This document shows, piece after piece, positions 10,970-45,006 of a stretch of DNA of 64,000 nt (position 1 is its first letter; every line of letters begins with the position of its first letter). The notes below the pieces were generated by a model. It did not search any database and was not told where the DNA came from. It saw only the letters and a program-made list of their open reading frames with translations. The position numbers and the translations under genes are program-made. This stretch comes from Vulcanimicrobiota bacterium (GTDB lineage Bacteria > Vulcanimicrobiota > Vulcanimicrobiia > Vulcanimicrobiales > Vulcanimicrobiaceae): assembly GCA_963723515.1 (NCBI GenBank), contig CAVRQT010000003.1:256001-320000 (forward strand). Direction: 5' to 3'.

Positions 10970-11448
10970 AATACCGCGCTGCACTGATCGTACTCTCCGA
11001 TCGCGCCGCGTCGGGGGAGCGTCCGGACCAATGCCTTCCGATCATGAAAGATCGCTTGGGAGCAGCGTACGACATCGTTCATGAGAGCGTCATACCGGAC
11101 GATGCGAGTGCGTTGCAGGCACAACTGATCGATCTCGCGGATCGCAACGTTGCCTCGCTGATCTTGACCAGTGGCGGCACCGGACTCTCGCCGCGCGATC
11201 GCACGCCGCAGACGACCGCCGCAGTGATTGACTATGAGGTGCCGGGCATCGGCGAAGCAATTCGGAGCTACTCCTTGGGCATCGTGCGCAGCGCGATGCT
11301 TTCACGCGCAGTCGCCGGAGTGCGGCATCGAACGCTCATCGTCAACCTTCCGGGCAGTCCGAAGGCGGTCGCGGAATCTCTAGACGTCATCGTGCCGGTG
11401 TTGCCGCATGCCATTGAGCTACTGACCGATGAGGTCGTCGACGGATGA
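10966..11448 (+). CDS. mog: Molybdopterin adenylyltransferase, MogA/MoaB family
   Basis: SDR...G.R.D, TSGGTGLSPRD.TP, AMLSR, NLPGSPKA. Confidence 0.92.
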   Translation: MKYRAALIVLSDRAASGERPDQCLPIMKDRLGAAYDIVHESVIPDDASALQAQLIDLADRNVASLILTSGGTGLSPRDRTPQTTAAVIDYEVPGIGEAIRSYSLGIVRSAMLSRAVAGVRHRTLIVNLPGSPKAVAESLDVIVPVLPHAIELLTDEVVDG

Positions 11449-12776
11449 ATTACGAGCAGGCCGAGGCCTATCTTTACGGCACGGTCAGCGAGATCGTCTC
11501 GCCGCGGGTTCCGTATCGTTTAGATCGGATGCGCTTCTTTCTTGAAGCGCTCGGTAATCCTCAGCGCCGCTATCCGTCGTTGCACATCGGCGGCACGAGC
11601 GGCAAGAGCTCGACCGCTACGATGGCCGCAGCTGTCTTGACCGCCGGCGGAAAGCGTTGCGGGTTGCATACGAAACCGCACCTCGAATCGATGACGGAGC
11701 GCGCGAGAATCGATGGCATCGCAATTTCACGCGAACGGTTCGCTCAGTTGCTGACCGAGATGGAAAGCGCGATCGATGAAGTGGCGCGCGAGTACAGCCG
11801 GCCATCCTACTACGAAACACTACTCGCCTTGGGGTTCTTGCATTTTGCGATCGAGCAGGTTGAAATCGCGGTGATCGAGGTCGGCCTTGGCGGCACGCTC
11901 GATGGCACGAATGTGATCACGCCGCTCGTCAGCGTCATCACGAACGTCGGGCTCGACCACACCGACGTGCTCGGCGACACTCTCGAAGAGATTGCATCCG
12001 ACAAGGTTGGGATTGCGAAACCCGGCGTGCCGCTGGTCACCGCCGTCTCCGATGCGGGTGCGGAACGCGTCATTCGTGCCGGTTGCGCAGCCGTTGGTGC
12101 GCCATATGTTTCTGTGCAATCGCAGGTTTGCGCGGTCACGCAGCAGTTTGAGGGACAATACGGACAACGCTTTACGCTGGAGACCAACCAGGCGAAGTAC
12201 AAAATCGAGATGCCCTTGCTCGGTGATTTTCAGATTCGAAATGCGGAAGCGGCGGTTGTTGCGCTCGAACAGTTGCCGGCTCTCTGCCGTCCGGGCGCGA
12301 CGGATGTGGAACGGGGCTTCGAAAGGGTCCACATTGCGGGACGCATGGAGGTGCTGCCTGGAAACCCGACGGTCGTCTTCGACATCGCGCATAACGCTGA
12401 TAAGGCGCAAAGTTTTGCGCAAGCGCTTCGCGCACATTTTGGGACCGGCCATCGCTATTGGTTTGTCATCGCGATTGGCGAACGCAAAGACGCAAAGGAT
12501 CTTCTGGCGGCGTTCAACGACTTCGAAGGCTCGTTCATTTTCACGACGTTCAGTGCGGTCGGAAGAACGGCTGCAAAGCCACAGCGGCTGGCGAGCATCG
12601 CGCAAGACCTCGGCATCTGGGGGCGAGAAATCAACGATCCGGTCGAAGCGCTCTCCGTTGCGCGCCGTAATGCGGAGCCCGGGGACATCGTCGTTGTAAC
12701 GGGCTCGACGTTCGTCGTCGCGCAACTGCGCGCGTGGTGGCTTGAAAACGTCGGTACGCAAGCCCCAGCGCGATAA
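11445..12776 (+). CDS. folC: Folylpolyglutamate synthase / dihydrofolate synthase
   Basis: HIGGTSGKSST, EVGLGG.LD.TN, GLDH...LG, GRME, D.AHN. Confidence 0.95.
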   Translation: MNYEQAEAYLYGTVSEIVSPRVPYRLDRMRFFLEALGNPQRRYPSLHIGGTSGKSSTATMAAAVLTAGGKRCGLHTKPHLESMTERARIDGIAISRERFAQLLTEMESAIDEVAREYSRPSYYETLLALGFLHFAIEQVEIAVIEVGLGGTLDGTNVITPLVSVITNVGLDHTDVLGDTLEEIASDKVGIAKPGVPLVTAVSDAGAERVIRAGCAAVGAPYVSVQSQVCAVTQQFEGQYGQRFTLETNQAKYKIEMPLLGDFQIRNAEAAVVALEQLPALCRPGATDVERGFERVHIAGRMEVLPGNPTVVFDIAHNADKAQSFAQALRAHFGTGHRYWFVIAIGERKDAKDLLAAFNDFEGSFIFTTFSAVGRTAAKPQRLASIAQDLGIWGREINDPVEALSVARRNAEPGDIVVVTGSTFVVAQLRAWWLENVGTQAPAR

Positions 12777-13614
12777 GCGTCGCGGCGCCCTGCAGCTGCG
12801 CGGGCGCACGCTGCCGTGGGGCGAGCGAACCTACTTGATGGGTGTCGTCAACGTGACGCCCGATTCATTCTCAGGCGACGGCCATCTCGAGCGCAGTGAT
12901 GCAATCGCCCATGCGCTCGAACAGCATTCGAAGAGCGCCGATATCATCGACATCGGTGCGCAGTCGACTCGTCCGGGATATACGCCGATTTCAGCGGAGG
13001 TTGAAGCGGAGCGGCTCTTACCCGTCCTTCAGGGCGTTCGCAAACAACTGTCCGACGCGATCATCTCCGTGGACACTTTTGAGGTTTCCGTGGCGAATGC
13101 GGCCGCCGACGCCGGCGCCGACATCTTGAACTCAATTTGGGGCCTTTCCAACGACCTGCTCTCGGTCGCGCTGCAGCACGAGATGCCGTTCGTCATCATG
13201 CATAACAAAGACGTGGCAGCCTATAAAGGCGACGTCGTGGACGAAGTGCTCAGGTTCTTAGAAAACGGGGCGCAACGCGCTCTTCGTGCCGGCATGCGCG
13301 AGGAGCATATTATCCTCGACCCTGGCATCGGATTCGGAAAACTGCCCGAAGACAATATGTCGGTCTTGCGCGAGCTAGAACGAGTCGTCGCGCTCGGATT
13401 CCCAACCTTGCTCGGAACATCTCGCAAATCGATGATCGGTAAGCTGACCGGCCGGCGAGCGGAGGAGAGGGTCTTGGGAACGGCCGCGACCGTCGCGCTC
13501 GCGATTGCGGCGGGCATCGACGTCGTTCGCGTCCACGATGTGCGTGAAATGCGCGACGTCATCGACGTCTGCGATGCGATCGAACGCGGATGGCGGCCGC
13601 AAGAATGGATGTAA
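12742..13614 (+). CDS. folP: Dihydropteroate synthase
   Basis: MGVVNVTPDSFSGDG, STRPG, DPGIGFGK, GTSRKS, VRVHDV. Confidence 0.96.
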   Translation: MKTSVRKPQRDKRRGALQLRGRTLPWGERTYLMGVVNVTPDSFSGDGHLERSDAIAHALEQHSKSADIIDIGAQSTRPGYTPISAEVEAERLLPVLQGVRKQLSDAIISVDTFEVSVANAAADAGADILNSIWGLSNDLLSVALQHEMPFVIMHNKDVAAYKGDVVDEVLRFLENGAQRALRAGMREEHIILDPGIGFGKLPEDNMSVLRELERVVALGFPTLLGTSRKSMIGKLTGRRAEERVLGTAATVALAIAAGIDVVRVHDVREMRDVIDVCDAIERGWRPQEWM

Positions 13615-13976
13615 TCGAAATTCGTGGGATTCGCGCGTTCGGCAAACATGGCGCCGACGAGCCGGAACGTTCACACGAGCAGCCGCTGGATATAGATGTT
13701 CGTCTGGAGATTGATTTGAGCGCCGCCTCGTCAAGCGACGATCTAGAAGCGACGCTCGACTATGCAAAACTTCACGCGCGGATCCTGAGCACCGTGCGCG
13801 AGCAGTCATATCATTTGCTCGAACGCCTCGCAGCCGAACTCCTGAAAACCATCTTCGATGATGTTCGCGTGGCTCGTGCCCAAGTCGCTATTGCGAAGCC
13901 CGCCATTCTCGGCGGGGCGACGCCGCGAGTACGACTGCGCAAGAAAAATCCCCGCTATCTTGGACCATGCCGATAA
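13605..13976 (+). CDS. folB: Dihydroneopterin aldolase
   Basis: MDVIEIRGI...G.HG...ER, SDDL..TLDY, LLERLA, KP. Confidence 0.93.
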   Translation: MDVIEIRGIRAFGKHGADEPERSHEQPLDIDVRLEIDLSAASSSDDLEATLDYAKLHARILSTVREQSYHLLERLAAELLKTIFDDVRVARAQVAIAKPAILGGATPRVRLRKKNPRYLGPCR

Positions 13977-14842
13977 CTGCCATCGGAATCGGGTCCAATC
14001 AAGGCGACGCTCGAGCGAACGTCACCGCAGCCTTCAACATGCTGCGTGAAATCGGCGACGTCACCGCAACCTCGCGGCTCTACCGAACGCGTCCGTGGGG
14101 TGTCAAAGATCAACCGGAGTTCATCAACGCGGCGGCGTTGGTCGAAACGACGCTCACGCCACACGAGTTGTTGCACGCCCTGCAATCGCTGGAACGCAAA
14201 CTTGGCCGCCGCCCAACGTATCGGTGGGGACCCCGCGTCATCGATCTCGACATTCTGTACTATGACGACGAGCGGATCGATGCATCCGACTTAGTCATTC
14301 CGCATCCGCGCATCTTGGAGCGCCAATTCGTTCTCGCGCCGCTCGCCGACATCGATCCGCGTTATGGTAATATCGCGCGCTCAGGATACGATGCGCAACC
14401 CGGCGAATGCACCCCGCTCATGCCTGAAGAGAGCGAAGATGTGACGATGCGAGTTCGCCGTCTCGTCGATGCATTCGAGCAAACGGACCTGATCGGCTTG
14501 CGGATCAGCGATGCGAATGGTGATGCGATCGAGCTTCGCCGTGCGCCCCGGAGCGCTTCCGATACAGAGCAAGATGGGTCGCAGCGCAAGTCATTCGAAG
14601 ATCGCAACCGAATCCCGGTGGACGTCATAAAAGCGAATCTCGTCGGTATCGCGCATCTTATCAAACCCGTTCCGCCGACCGGCACGCAACTCGATGGCGA
14701 GCGGGAACTTGCGTACGTCGAAGCGCTCGGCATTCGCAATGCCGTCGTCGCGCGAGGTCCAGGCCGACTTCATGCAGTTCTCGTTGACGACGGGCAGCCG
14801 GTCGAATACGGTCAACCACTCTTCGAGATCGCGCGGCCTTGA
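13967..14842 (+). CDS. folK: HPPK (FolK) fused in frame to a BCCP/AccB-like domain lacking the biotinyl Lys
   Basis: GIGSNQGD, QPEFINAA, RWGPRVIDLDIL, LVIPHPRI.ER.FVL.PL; C-terminal YVEALGIRN...GQPVEYGQPLF. Confidence 0.88.
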   Translation: MPITAIGIGSNQGDARANVTAAFNMLREIGDVTATSRLYRTRPWGVKDQPEFINAAALVETTLTPHELLHALQSLERKLGRRPTYRWGPRVIDLDILYYDDERIDASDLVIPHPRILERQFVLAPLADIDPRYGNIARSGYDAQPGECTPLMPEESEDVTMRVRRLVDAFEQTDLIGLRISDANGDAIELRRAPRSASDTEQDGSQRKSFEDRNRIPVDVIKANLVGIAHLIKPVPPTGTQLDGERELAYVEALGIRNAVVARGPGRLHAVLVDDGQPVEYGQPLFEIARP

Positions 14843-14890: not shown

Positions 14891-16244
14891 GTGTTTAGAA
14901 AGGTCTTGATCGCCAATCGCGGCGAGATCGCGCTTCGAATCAACCGCGCATGTCAAGAATTGGGCGTGTCAACGGTCGCGATTCATTCCGAGGCGGATCG
15001 GAGCTCGCTTCACGTTCGGCAAGCGAACGAAGCATTTTGCGTGGGTCCGGGGTCGGCCGCGCACTCCTATCTCAATATTCCGAACATCATCTCGACGGCA
15101 TTGATTACCGGCGCCGACGCTGTTCATCCCGGCTACGGATTTTTAGCCGAGAACGCTCGTTTTGCGGAGATCTGCGCCGACCATGGGCTCGTCTTCATCG
15201 GCCCACCACCGGATGTCATCGCATTGATGGGTGATAAGGCGAACGCGAAGCGTGTCATGGCGCAGAGCGGCGTTCCGACGACTCCCGGAACGGAAGTTCT
15301 TGAAACGGCCGCCGATGCGGCGCATGCCGCTGAAAAGATCGGCTTCCCAGTTCTCTTGAAAGCGACGGCCGGCGGCGGCGGCAAGGGCATGCGCGAGGTC
15401 GACGCTTCGGATCAGATGGAGCGGACCTTTGCGATGGCGCAAGCGGAGGCGGAAGCGAATTTTAACGACGGCCGGCTCTATTTAGAGAAGCTGATCGAAC
15501 ATCCGCGGCACATTGAAGTTCAAGTTTTGGGCGATACGTTCGGCAACATCGTGCATCTCGGGGAGCGCGACTGCTCGATTCAAAAGCCATCGCACCAAAA
15601 ATTGATCGAGGAAGCGCCCGCGGCGAATCTCGCCGGAGCGCGTGCGGCGAACGCTGCAAGAGACGGCCGTTCGCGCCGCAGTAGCCGTCAAATATACCAA
15701 TGCCGGAACGCTGGAATTCCTCGTGAGCGATCGGCAGGCGTATTTCATGGAGATGAACACGCGCATTCAAGTCGAGCATCCGGTGACGGAAATGGTCTAT
15801 GGCATCGACCTCGTCAAGGAGCAGATTCGCATTGCGGCCGGCGAGGCGCTCGGTTACGCGCAGGGCGACCTGCGTGCAAGAGGCCACGCGATCGAGTGCC
15901 GGCTGAACGCCGAGGATCCGACGCGCAATTTTGCGCCCGTCGCCGGTACGCTGACCGATGTCGTCTTTCCGGGCGGCCCGGGAATTCGCGTTGATACGCA
16001 CGCTTATTCCGGCCTCGAAGTCCCGCCGTTTTACGATTCGATGCTTGCCAAGGTGATCGCATTCGCCGATACGCGTGAAGCGGCGATCGCTCGGATGGAA
16101 CGTGCGCTCAAAGAAACCGTAATAGAGGGCGTGGCCACGACGATAGCCCCGTGCCTCGGCGTGCTCGCCTCGCGTGCGTTTCGTTCAGGCAATTACGGGA
16201 TCGATTTTCTGCCGTCGTTCATTCACGAGTCGACGGCTGCCTAA
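14891..16244 (+). CDS. accC: Acetyl-CoA carboxylase biotin carboxylase subunit, frameshift near 15640
   Basis: KVLIANRGEIA, HPGYGFLAEN, GGGGKGMR, then EMNTRIQVEHPVTE, CRLNAEDP, YDSMLAK. Confidence 0.95.
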
Positions 16245-16249
16245 TTGCA

Positions 16250-16675
16250 ATGCCGACCCGCCGCATGGCTCGAGAGCTGGCCCTACAGACGCTCTTCAGC
16301 GTCGAAGTCGGACATCAGCCGCCTGACGATGCGCTCACGCAAACATTCACGCATAGCGGCAGCCGGGGTGCCCAACGCGCGTTCATTCAGGATCTGGTCT
16401 TTGGAACGCTCGAGCACTCCGAGGAAAGCGATCGCGAATTCTCGCCGCTGCTCGAGGGTTGGACGATCGATCGCTTGCCGACGATCGATCGGCTTCTGCT
16501 GCGCATGAGCCTTTTTGAACTGCGCCACCGGCCACAAATTCCGCGCGCCGTCGTCATCAACGAGGCGGTGGAACTCGCGAAGAAATTCTCGACGGACGAC
16601 TCGGGCCGCTTCATCAACGGCGTGCTCTCGGCCGCGTGCAATGGCCGTCCAACGAAAGCCGATGCAACGCACTAG
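16250..16675 (+). CDS. nusB: Transcription antitermination factor NusB
   Basis: RRMARELALQTLF, W...RL..IDR..LR, VVINEAVELAKKFS, FINGVL. Confidence 0.96.
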   Translation: MPTRRMARELALQTLFSVEVGHQPPDDALTQTFTHSGSRGAQRAFIQDLVFGTLEHSEESDREFSPLLEGWTIDRLPTIDRLLLRMSLFELRHRPQIPRAVVINEAVELAKKFSTDDSGRFINGVLSAACNGRPTKADATH

Positions 16676-18727
16676 ATTTCGCACCGATTACGTGCGGCCT
16701 GTGAGGCGCCCGTTGCCTTTGTGGTGGCGCATTTTGGCGGTCTGCCTCTGCGTGATCTTCTTCATCGGGCTCTTCGCCGCAGGGACGATCGCCGGCGTGA
16801 TCGCTTCGTACTCGCAAAATTTGCCCGACATCAACCGTATGGCGGATTTTCAACCGGAACGTTCGACGCGTCTGTACGCGCGCGACGGGACGCTGCTCGC
16901 AAACCTCTATCGGCAGAATCGCATCTGGGTACCGATCAACAAGATTCCACCGATCGTTCGTGACGCGTTCATTGCGGTCGAAGACGAGCATTTTTACCAG
17001 CATCACGGCGTCGATTTTCAAGGCATAGCGCGCGCCGCGATCGCCGACTGGCGGCACGAGCGCTTCCAAGGCGCATCGACGATCACGCAGCAGCTCGCGC
17101 GCGCGCTCTTCCTTTCCGGTGAAGTCTCGGTATCGCGCAAGATTCAGGAAGCGCTGCTGGCGATGGAAATCGAGCGCTTTTATACGAAGGACGAAATCCT
17201 CGAACGCTACCTGAACATGATCTATTTCGGCTCCCAAGCCTATGGAGTCGAGGCGGCCGCGCATACGTACTTTGGAAAGAGCGTCCAAAATTTGAGCGTT
17301 GGGCAGGCGGCATTGCTTGCCGGTTTGCCCGCCGCGCCGTCGGACTACTCACCGTATGTCAATCTTTCGCATGCTAAGCAGCGGCAAACGCACGTTCTCG
17401 ACCGGATGGTCGCGGGTGGCTACCTGACGCAGGCGCAGGCGGCGGCGGCATATGCTGAGCCGTTGCATTTAGCGGGTGAACGCAGCCCCGGTTTCAGGGC
17501 TACGCTTATCCGTATTTCACGACGTACGCAATCAACCAACTCGAAAAGACGTTCGGGCGACAAGCAACGTACGAAGCGGGCTTGCAAGTGTACACGACGC
17601 TCGATCCCAAACTGCAAAAACTTGCGCAAGATTGCGTCAATTGGGGCGTGCAGAGCGCAATTGCGGAAGGCATCGGCGCCGATCAAGAGGCGCTCGTCGC
17701 GATCCGTCCGTCAACGGGAGAGATTCTCGCGATGGTCGGCGGCGCCGGCGGCTTTCTCGCTGCACAACCAATTCAACCGCGCGTGGCAAACGCGCCGCCA
17801 GCCGGGTTCTTCCTTTAAAGTGTACGTTTACACCGCTGCAATCGACAGCGGCATGCCGCCGACCGCAATCATGGAAGATACGCCGGTTTCTTACCCGATG
17901 GGCGACGGTACGCTGTGGGAACCGAAGGACGACGATCTGAGCTATATGGGTGCGATCCCGCTGCGAACGGCGCTCGCGCAATCGCGCAATATCGTCGCCG
18001 TCAAACTGGCGCAATTGCTCGGCGTCGACCGCGTGATCGCGTATGCGCAACGGATGGGCGTCCGCTCGCCGCTCGAAGCGAACCTTTCACTTGCGCTCGG
18101 CACTTCGGGCGTGAGTCCGCTCGACATGGCCTCCGGCTTCTCGACCTTAGCCAATCAGGGCGTGCACATTGAGCCCTCGCCGTTTCGGATCGTCAAAGAT
18201 TCGCTCGGGACGATGATTCTCGACAACCGCTTTCCGCAACAGACCGAAGTGGTCGGCGCGGGCACCGCATACATCATGGACTCGATGATGGAAAGCGTCA
18301 TCCAATCGGGCACCGGAATCGAATGCGCAAAATCGGACGGCCCGCAGCCGGCAAGACCGGAACGACCTCGAGCTTCCGCGATGCCTGGTTCGTCGGGTTC
18401 ACGCCGGATCTCGTGGCGGCGGTTTGGCTGGGCAACGACGATTACGCGCCGATGAACGAATCGTACGGGGGGAATATCCCGGCGCGAACCTGGGCGCGTT
18501 TCATGGAAGCGGCGCTTGCCAAGACGCCCAAACATGATTTTCCGTTCCCGAGCGGCGAGGTCGTGAAAGTTGCCAACTGCGGCGGCGGCTACGAATACTT
18601 TCTGCCCGGCACGGAGCCGCTGAGCCGTTGCGCGAGCCCGGGCTCCGAGCGCCGCGTCGACATCAATGCGTACCAGCCGCCCGAGGGAGCTGCAACGCTG
18701 CAGCCTTTACCGACCGCGACGCCATGA
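16662..18727 (+). CDS. Class A penicillin-binding protein (PBP1A family), frameshifts near 17490, 17755 and 18320
   Basis: EDEHFYQH.G, GASTITQQLAR, RKIQE, RQPGSSFK, SRN, then AGKTGT...DAWFVGFTP in the 18323 frame. Confidence 0.93.
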
Positions 18728-42897: not shown

Positions 42898-44542
42898 CTA
42901 CCACGTTTTCATGCCCGGCGCCAAGAAGCCGGGATGTTGGAAAATATCGTAGAGCGGTCCGATATACGCGAGAATCGCCAGCCCGATGGCGACTGCTCCC
43001 CAGCGGAAGAGATGCTGAAGTAGAGCGGGTGTTGGCCGCGAGCCTTCCACCGGTTGCGCGAATTGCACGCTCATGTCTTCGAACTTTTCATTTCCCAGCG
43101 CTGTCCCGATTGCGATGACCGCGAACAGAATGATGCTGCAGAATAAGAAGAATCCGCCCGCCGCTGCGATCACCATCAACGGTTGCCACTGGTTCGCCGT
43201 CTGCGCGCCTAAGTAGCTGACCTCAGCGGTGCGTCGCGGTGCGCCCATCAATCCGGCCCAATGCATCGAAATCGACATAAAAAGCATCCCGTAAAACCAG
43301 ATTTTGGTCTGCACAACGGCCAAGTCGGGGCGCCACAGCGAGCGGCCGGTCAGCTTTGGAACCAGCCAATACGCCGCACCTAAGAATGTCAATGCAACCG
43401 GGCCGCCGACCGTAACGTGGAAGTGCCCGACGATCCAAACCGTGTTGTGCACGACGGTGTCCATGCTGTACGACGCATTGATGAGGCCGCCGAAGCCGCC
43501 CAGAATAAAGAGCATCATCCCATACGCAGCACCGCTGAACGCCGGATCCTTCCACGGCAAGCGATTTGACGGTTTCGACGAAGCCGCGGTTTCCACGCGC
43601 ACGCGCCGCTAGTTCAAAGGATGCGAAGACTGCGAATGCTGTGATGAAGGAGGGAATCGCAACGCCGTAGGTCGTCAGGGTGTGCAGCATCTTCCACTTC
43701 GTCGCAATATACGGCTCCATAAACTGGTGGTGGATGCCGACCGGCGTTGAGAGCAGCAGCAGCAGAATGAATGCGAGGCGCGTTAAGGCCGTCACTGAAC
43801 ACATATCCACCGTACCGCGTCGGAATGACGTTATACCAGATGATGTACGCGCCCATGATCCAGAAGTAGACCAGTGGGTGGCCAAAATACCAGAAGAGCA
43901 TGCGCGTCAGCATCACGTTGACGCCGCTCGTCCACCCGAATGCCCACGGAATCAGCAGTACATTTCGCCGACGACACCGAGCGTCGCGATGAACCACATC
44001 AAAAACGTCGTAGCACAGCCAAAGACGATCAGCGGCACGGGCGTGCCGGGATTGTTGCGCCTGAACCAGATGACGTTTGAAAGTATCTCGGCTCCGACAA
44101 TCCACGTGCCGAGAATCAGGATCGTCGCGCCGATGTAAAACCATGGGCTGGCTTTCAGCGGCGCGTAGAAGGTGTAGAGTACCGTCGCTTTTCCGGCTAA
44201 AATATTGACGGCGGCCATCGCGGTGCCCACGAGCATGACGCTCCAGCCGAGCCATCCCAAGAGCATCGAACGCTCTCTTGGGATCGAGCGATAGACCGCG
44301 AACAGCCCGAGGCCAGTGATGAAGAACGTCGTGAAGACGAGCGCCATCAAGACGCCATGCATCGTTAGAATGCGATAGTAATCGAACCACGGCGGCACCG
44401 CGATTACCGAAGCGCGCGAAAAGCCTTGAACCGCGCCAAAGACGGCGCCCAAGACGATGGCGGTGGTCGAAGTGTAAATGTGCGCCAGAACGACCCTGTT
44501 CTCGCGCAACACCTGCGGCTGTACTCTCGCAGAAGCGATCAT
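42898..44542 (-). CDS. cbaA: ba3-type (family B) heme-copper oxidase subunit I, frameshifts near 43965, 43785 and 43560
   Basis: YY..LT.HGVLMA, FWYFGHPLVYFW, GIHHQF, HNT.W..GHFH.TVG. Confidence 0.92.
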
Positions 44543-45006
44543 TGAACTTCTATGCTCGCGGACATGTTTTGGTGGCCGATGCCGCAGTACTCGTGACAGA
44601 GCAGCAGGTACGTGCCGCGCAACCGAAAGACGTGCGTCTGTGAATTGATCCACCCCGGCACCGCCATCATGTTGATGTCGGTGTGCGCCACCAGGAAACC
44701 GTGCACGACGTCGGGACTCGTAACATAGAACGTCACCTTGCTGCCCACCGGAACTTTCAGCACCGGTGGATTGAACGAGAAGACTTGTGCGACGTAGTAC
44801 GCCTCGTAGCTTCCGTCCGATAGTTTGCGTAGCCCCGGCTTATCGAATGGCGGCGTCTGCACGACCTTCGTCGGGTCGATGGCCTGCAAGCCGCTCGGGG
44901 GATTGATATTATCTTCAAATGCGGCGTACCCGATGATGGCGAGGAACAGCACGAGCATCGCGACGCCGAACGTCATCCACCACTTTTCGTAACGGTGGAT
45001 ATGCAT
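44539..45006 (-). CDS. cbaB: ba3-type oxidase subunit II (CuA)
   Basis: MHIHRYEKWW start, one TM, DVVHGF, CHEYCGIGHQNM. Confidence 0.93.
   Translation of the reverse strand: MHIHRYEKWWMTFGVAMLVLFLAIIGYAAFEDNINPPSGLQAIDPTKVVQTPPFDKPGLRKLSDGSYEAYYVAQVFSFNPPVLKVPVGSKVTFYVTSPDVVHGFLVAHTDINMMAVPGWINSQTHVFRLRGTYLLLCHEYCGIGHQNMSASIEVQ

Follow-up and report, generated by a model that had tools for sequence, protein, structure and literature searches.

A probable BADC-like paralog of biotin carboxyl carrier protein, without the biotinyl lysine and thumb, encoded before accC in Vulcanimicrobiota

The gene directly upstream of accC in a Vulcanimicrobiota genome was found to encode a protein with the overall shape of AccB, the biotin carboxyl carrier protein (BCCP) of acetyl-CoA carboxylase (ACC), in which glycine stands at the place of the biotinyl lysine and the thumb is missing. 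This protein, counted from the ATG at 14420, is called BCCP* in this report. It is probably a non-biotinylatable, non-catalytic BCCP paralog that serves ACC as an accessory subunit, in the manner of the plant BADC proteins. The analysis started from a window of 64,000 nucleotides (C3:256001-320000) of the source genome (G000; 2.11 Mb in 4 contigs), and positions are those of the window unless a contig is named. The relevant features are as follows.

11445..12776, forward strand: folC-like gene (Mur-ligase-type folylpolyglutamate synthase); Pfam Mur_ligase_M 59 bits, Mur_ligase_C 54 bits
12742..13614, forward strand: folP (dihydropteroate synthase); Pfam Pterin_bind 240 bits, profile covered in full
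13590..13976, forward strand: folB (dihydroneopterin aldolase); Pfam FolB 92 bits
13967..14419, forward strand: folK (HPPK) part of a 291-aa frame; PF01288 138.1 bits, TIGR01498 136.9 bits
14420..14842, forward strand: BCCP*, AccB-like, 140 aa from ATG 14420; lacks both the biotinyl lysine and the thumb; stop codon at 14840-14842
14714..14740, forward strand: hairpin YVEALGIRN of BCCP*, with GGC (Gly) at 14729-14731 at the place of the biotinyl lysine of AccB
14891..16244, forward strand: accC (biotin carboxylase), in two frames, 14891-15994 and 15642-16244; Pfam and NCBIfam matches
15572-15601, forward strand: AccC loop CSIQKPSHQK
16253..16675, forward strand: nusB; PF01029 115.6 bits, residues 40-161 of a 174-aa ORF

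A first-pass annotation had described an AccB-like domain at 14420..14842 that reads YVEALGIRN and lies directly before accC and nusB. The hairpin is indeed found there, in the frame of ATG 14420, and both genes do follow directly: accC starts 49 nt past the BCCP* stop, and nusB comes next, its listed ORF beginning at GTG 16151 and its NusB domain at about Met 16253. The boundaries given for the domain were also right as to ATG and stop, but the annotation had missed that the frame is continuous with folK from 13967. No stop intervenes between folK and the BCCP-like domain, and 13967-14842 is thus one open frame of 291 aa. Its residues 6-131 constitute HPPK, matching positions 2-116 of the 116 of PF01288, and the TIGR01498 score of 136.9 bits, against a cut-off of 54.1, assigns this part to HPPK/FolK.

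BCCP* aligns over its full length with the canonical AccB of the same genome, with EALG on EAMK and the glycine on the biotinyl lysine. E. coli AccB (4HR7_B; E 1.7e-12) is likewise aligned along its full length with a profile of 20 BCCP* relatives, again with glycine on the biotinyl lysine. Against both of these proteins BCCP* has a 5-residue gap at the thumb, and its N-terminal module is aligned with that of AccB and is kept. The hairpin is free of lysine, the only lysines of the domain lying in VIKAN and LIKPV, and the glycine codon GGC is at least two base changes away from any lysine codon. The AF2 model, computed from a 20-row alignment, contains a helix (residues 3-22), two strands (26-30 and 36-40), a low-confidence or disordered linker (44-62) and a barrel-sandwich domain of eight strands (66-140) predicted with pLDDT 95-97. 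The top Foldseek match of this model is 1BDO (E 2.3e-5, target TM 0.81, rmsd 2.2), followed among the other top PDB matches by P. horikoshii BCCP, 4HR7 and Arabidopsis BCCP1, all of them biotinyl domains of BCCPs. The AccB-like N-terminus and barrel-sandwich C-terminus reported in the first pass are thus borne out by alignment, predicted fold and Foldseek match, the model folding as a biotinyl domain. The whole architecture of AccB, namely an N-terminal module, a flexible linker, a barrel-sandwich domain and a gene before accC, is found in BCCP*. The AccB equivalog model TIGR00531 gives BCCP* 36.8 bits against a cut-off of 115.2, with the match confined to profile positions 105-154; lysine, thumb and score all fail, which places BCCP* outside that equivalog family. 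PF00364 (Biotin_lipoyl) scores 21.5 bits on the BCCP* of the window, below the gathering threshold of 22.1, and a precomputed PF00364 match is present on many of its relatives. Nothing but generic Biotin_lipoyl clusters of Vulcanimicrobiota came from a protein atlas search.

A functional accB had been expected elsewhere in the genome, and an EAMK-containing copy was found at C2:596362-596772. The AccB encoded there is 164 aa long, contains CIIEAMKLMNEI and has a thumb; its gene has no adjacent accC, and this copy scores 114.8 bits with TIGR00531 by itself and 119.6 bits with its in-frame neighbours (cut-off 115.2). Relatives nearly always have a canonical AccB as well (40 of 41), and EAMK and a thumb are present in all 30 loci that were read; the exception is G028 (90% complete, 360 contigs), in which the sole match of the canonical-AccB search was BCCP* itself. 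The remaining ACC genes of the source genome include adjacent accD and accA at C3:337911-339706, both above cut-off. Its two further biotin carboxylases carry their own fused BCCP domains, and accC of the window is thus the only stand-alone biotin carboxylase (BC). The biotin ligase match in this genome is partial (61 bits, profile positions 70-176, C2:834440-834763).

How widely is the lysine-less protein conserved? A protein search in 41 genomes, spanning the source genome and its genus, family, order and class, gave a BCCP* match in all 41; this tally and that of canonical AccB include the unpublished genomes G020, G022 and G036. All 20 loci read from this search have LG at the MK position, the hairpin residues L, G, I and R are invariant in 20/20, and the RELAYVEALGIRN block contains the majority of the invariant columns. 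A one-genome-per-species scan yielded 80 loci, 51 of which (L035-L085) belong to Vulcanimicrobiota/Eremiobacterota-type MAGs; every one of these 51 reads E[AST]LG[IV]R and has accC directly downstream. With ten more loci from families f1 and f2 (10/10), LG was found at the tip in 81/81 loci of the window's order (20/20 + 51/51 + 10/10), some genomes being counted twice through the use of two tools. In 80 of these 81 loci accC is the next gene after BCCP*, and in the remaining one the contig ends first; accC is also directly downstream in 20/20 loci L145-L164 of families f1, f2 and f3. Among the best 120 of 372 database matches, LG was recognized in 117 by pattern and in 2 by eye, one further case being a pattern mis-hit, so that at least 119 of these 120 share the substitution first noticed in the window. 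When 401 genomes of the phylum were searched with a profile (E<=1e-20), BCCP* was detected in 283/296 genomes of f1, 5/5 of f2 and 29/30 of f3, that is, in 317 of the 331 sampled genomes of the class; unpublished genomes (G020, G022, G036, G229, G249, G260, G275 and G374) are included in this tally, and no conclusion stands on them alone. The dN/dS of BCCP* was estimated at 0.09-0.45 over 10 pairs in which dS is mostly saturated, and the least saturated pair (dS 0.38) gives 0.14. Frame-breaking changes are absent from the 81 loci apart from two split copies (L164 and G006). Judged from these sequences, BCCP* is a conserved gene under purifying selection, neither an error nor a relic. Three loci (L054, L074 and L075) are titled Binatia, Dormiibacterota and Limnocylindria and carry the gene pair typical of the window's order; the protein tail of L074 is identical to that of L023 (G027, of the window's order), and the odd taxa are probably labels that differ between sources.

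Outside the window's order, the residue at the hairpin tip varies. In the sister family f3 (L145-L154), the accC-linked copy is thumbless and has EALK in 7/10 and EALR in 3/10 loci. The accC-linked proteins of f3 also have a 30-50 residue C-terminal extension with the conserved end ...EPPR[LIM], which may be a short docking motif. The accC-linked copies of other classes of the phylum carry N, S, R or G at the tip (L177-L180), and canonical EAMK AccBs are located elsewhere (L181, L182). Two Armatimonadota genomes, G041 and G043, each contain a thumb-bearing EAMK AccB away from accC together with a thumbless tip-R copy, which lies before accC in G041; in G043 no accC is present within the contig stretch read. 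The 30 best loci from 61 Armatimonadota genomes have K (15), G (7), R (4) and T, A, S and D (1 each) at the tip. Eight Armatimonadota loci (L188, L189, L191, L198, L200, L202, L210 and L213) contain a small prepilin-like gene between the BCCP-like gene and accC, in 8/8 gaps; the N-terminal segment of its product is hydrophobic and of LIE type, and the C-terminal part contains a CP..G.PY.YDP.TG motif. Among the best 150 representatives of 50% clusters in a database of 1.84 billion proteins, the tip is K in 60, G in 52, R in 27, A in 3, S in 3, T in 2 and N, Q and E in 1 each; among 20 Lys-less representatives outside the window's clade that were looked up, a taxon name was available on 2, both Armatimonadota. 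A quick tree with SH-aLRT support only unites all canonical AccBs, each of which has lysine, in one clade (98) and the BCCP* of the class in another (96), and leaves every Lys-less sequence outside the canonical AccB clade. Since the outgroup AccBs are biased to the PVEYGQPLF motif and the tree is a quick one, no donor or order of events is claimed from it. The lysine tips in 7/10 loci of f3 and 15/30 of Armatimonadota mean that some members may still be biotinylated, and the role of the family is perhaps not a single one.

The relation to folK was examined in the same 81 loci. The two genes share one open frame, as in the window, in 20/81 loci, and are adjacent but separate in another 20/81; in 11 of the latter, a single in-frame stop is all that divides them. 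In 25/81 loci folK is more than 400 nt away, and in 16/81 it is missing from the locus. The constant partner gene of BCCP* is accC, not folK. Across 50 distinct upstream regions, GCGAA at -17 to -13 and C at -3 of the BCCP* ATG are kept, and no Shine-Dalgarno-like motif was found before the ATG in these regions. This conserved stretch (window 14403-14422) is the same in fused loci, where it is coding sequence of FolK, and in unfused loci, where it is untranslated. Because the nucleotides before the ATG are conserved whether or not the genes are fused, we infer that the ATG still serves as a start inside the fused frames.

A complex of BCCP* with AccC was modelled from own alignments for the cognate pair of the same-genus genome G001 (AccC, 450 aa; BCCP*, 141 aa). 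BCCP* was predicted to sit on AccC with an ipSAE of 0.74 (0.74, 0.77 and 0.74 in the runs; 0.00 for the best of three controls), a score that may be the model's memory given that the E. coli BC-BCCP complex has been solved (4HR7) and a likeness to it is possible. The mark of 0.74 was reached by 116/157 solved complexes and 2/215 mismatched pairs, counts that are only roughly valid here because own alignments were used. At least 74% of the contacts agree between the runs, and the partner pLDDT is at least 70. The modelled interface comprises L75-V76-G77-I78, A103-L104 and S128/E130-Q133 of BCCP*, and residues 34, 49-53, 59, 64-72 and 98 of the N-terminal domain of AccC. The docking surface of BCCP* for AccC looks intact in the model, which speaks for likeness and not for retained binding as such.

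The adjacent AccC had been noted to read CSIQKPSHQK in place of the usual CSxQRRHQK. This loop, one residue longer, is real, but it turned out to be a trait of the class and is not tied to the loss of lysine; the split of accC in frame had also been overlooked. The loop is present in 47/47 readable accC genes beside BCCP* in L035-L085 (4 of the 51 being cut or truncated) and in 19/19 readable ones in L145-L164, the class-wide form being CS.QKP[SGAT]HQK, whereas 26 accC genes beside canonical AccBs of other phyla read CSxQRR[HY]QK. One Armatimonadota accC reads CSVQTRRHQK. Co-variation of QKPSHQK with lysine loss was considered and rejected, the loop being found with K, R and G tips within the class. 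Lys-less copies in other classes of the phylum occur with QRRNQK or QRRHQK, so that the loop marks the class and is not a partner of the lysine loss. In 37 AccC sequences there is no variation at the columns that correspond to the catalytic residues of E. coli BC.

In the window, one frame of accC matches positions 1-250 of the profile, and the second frame matches 251-445. The frame changes, within 15626-15641, between ...EEAPAANL (to 15631) and PERVRR (from 15633), with one extra base near 15632, as judged against the accC of the same-genus G001, which reads NLPDRVRK and is intact (450 aa). This split is considerably more probably an assembly indel than a real frameshift; if it were real, the partner of BCCP* would be broken in this organism. 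A truncated accC was also observed in 2/51 related loci, both in long-contig MAGs. Other genes appear cut as well: the transpeptidase domain of PBP1A (16509-18727) is interrupted, its remainder lying in ORF 18323-18727; hisS is split (L001 2041-3337); and a second BC-BCCP gene is broken (G000:C2:246959-248888), as birA perhaps is too. The broken PBP1A, hisS and second BC-BCCP genes and the partial biotin ligase are likely residual assembly indels. Rampant frameshifting in the window was rejected as a description, most of the 42 frames scanned giving full-length domain matches; the genes that look broken among these 42 are only accC, PBP1A and perhaps a COX1 fragment. The last of these, on the reverse strand at 43617-44549, has a COX1 profile match limited to positions 183-242 of 436, and could be either divergent or broken as well.

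Among known systems, the plant BADCs are the closest in kind. PMC11926652 and PMC12706156 describe them as non-biotinylated relatives of BCCP with binding to BC and BCCP, whose action as a brake or a glue is under debate, and the abstract of the former calls BADC 'unique to the plant htACCase'. Like BCCP*, plant BADC is BCCP-like, lacks the biotinylation motif and coexists with a true BCCP. Unlike plant BADC, BCCP* is bacterial, its gene precedes accC in an operon, and in some loci it is joined to FolK; the likeness proposed between the two is one of function. Canonical AccB (E. coli; 1BDO, 4HR7) shares with BCCP* the three-part architecture, the fold, the place before accC and a similar predicted docking to BC; BCCP* differs from it by Gly for Lys, the lost 5-residue thumb, the sub-cut-off TIGR00531 score and a position outside the all-Lys clade. 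According to passages of PMC11160672, E. coli BCCP parks at a non-catalytic site of BC beside the N-terminus of AccD, and the alpha/beta/beta motif made up of the first 30 residues of BCCP may multimerise. Both of these modules, the N-terminal motif and the docking domain, are kept in BCCP*. The thumb is reported as necessary in E. coli BCCP in the part of PMC11926652 that cites Cronan 2001, and the same source mentions the AccE/PccE epsilon subunits as 'glue'. The BLAP protein of B. subtilis (YngHB; 1Z6H) resembles BCCP* in being a small biotinyl/lipoyl-type domain, with a weak profile match (E 2.1e-5). It differs in lacking both the AccB N-terminal module and the linkage to accC, and in keeping the modifiable lysine. 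The actinobacterial AccE/PccE proteins are, as is proposed for BCCP*, small non-catalytic subunits that aid assembly and activation of a biotin carboxylase complex; they are not known to be related to BCCP* in fold or sequence. No description of a bacterial Lys-less accB paralog was found in the literature, in which subscription journals were thinly covered, and the passages available of PMC3459881, PMC11077971, PMC3199775 and PMC12706156 describe none.

What else could BCCP* be? There is a negligible probability that the glycine comes from a normal accB whose lysine codon was garbled in sequencing or assembly: the assembly does contain indel errors or pseudogenes, as the split accC, PBP1A and hisS illustrate, but GGC is two or three bases away from AAA/AAG, the same glycine occurs in every relative from independent assemblies, and it is accompanied by the thumb deletion and many other differences. 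It is also very improbable that BCCP* is a decaying, functionless remnant of an ancestral accB left behind after the second accB took over. The gene does occupy the usual place of accB before accC, has lost lysine and thumb, and falls far below the AccB model (36.8 vs 115.2 bits); yet a remnant would hardly be kept in 317/331 genomes of the class at a dN/dS of 0.09-0.45, with a confident fold model, with the hairpin as its best-conserved block and with frames intact in 81 loci save the split L164 and G006. A protein still acting as carboxyl carrier through another residue or cofactor attachment is scarcely more credible. Some family members keep a lysine tip, and the loop of the neighbouring AccC is unusual, whereas the hairpin of the window's protein has no lysine, those of its domain being limited to VIKAN and LIKPV, the tip is free to differ from one lineage to the next (G, R, N, S, A, T, D), the thumb is absent and a canonical AccB coexists.

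The alternative that deserves the most weight, although we consider it unlikely, is that BCCP* acts outside the catalysis and assembly of ACC, as an apo-BCCP mimic that titrates BirA, in autoregulation of the acc operon only, or as a module serving FolK. A basic residue at or near the tip (R at tip+2 in f1/f2; K or R at the tip in f3) could mimic the unmodified lysine hairpin. The N-terminal module of AccB, which has a role in acc autoregulation in E. coli, is retained, and folK is fused in 20/81 loci and one in-frame stop away in 11 more. Against this, accC and not folK is the invariable partner, folK being more than 400 nt away or absent in 41/81 loci; the conservation of the nucleotides leading up to the ATG speaks for a separately made protein even when the genes are fused; and the predicted contact surface for AccC draws on the conserved residues.

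The accessory-subunit reading proposed at the outset remains the best explanation. The first-pass suggestion of a BADC-like regulator or scaffold is supported by the second accB, the conserved glycine and the fold, and the role itself is what we infer from them. The biotinyl lysine and the thumb, both of which an ACC-type BCCP needs for carrying CO2, are lost in BCCP*. The protein would be produced along with AccC, starting at its own ATG, and in the source genome perhaps additionally as a fusion to FolK. Its part would be either to keep the ACC complex together ('glue') or to limit the access of holo-AccB ('brake'), as plant BADC does; on this reading it would bind AccC in the cell and affect ACC activity. 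Co-expression with accC and near-universal retention lead us to lean towards a constitutive structural role, and the sign of the effect could go either way. More speculatively, and with distinctly less assurance than for the accessory role itself, it may be suggested that two phyla (Vulcanimicrobiota/Eremiobacterota and Armatimonadota) run a heteromeric ACC on two BCCPs: a mobile, biotinylated, thumb-bearing carrier encoded away from accC, and an ancient, accC-linked, thumbless 'dummy' whose tip is free to vary (G, R, K, N, S, A, T). Such a dummy would occupy the non-catalytic parking site between BC and AccD for good and, through the N-terminal module that both proteins share, keep the true carrier tethered. 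It would form the bacterial equivalent of BADC, and would in part of the lineage be coupled to folate synthesis by the FolK fusion.

BADC is a debated control point of plant oil synthesis. If the reading of BCCP* as an ACC accessory subunit is true, a two-carrier architecture arose outside plants too, and Vulcanimicrobiota would offer a simple operon-encoded system for testing glue against brake. Sources label BCCP* as 'accB', 'acetyl-CoA carboxylase biotin carboxyl carrier protein' or 'biotin/lipoyl-binding protein', so that metabolic reconstructions may name the wrong gene as the carrier; the same reading would correct a systematic annotation error in poorly cultured phyla.
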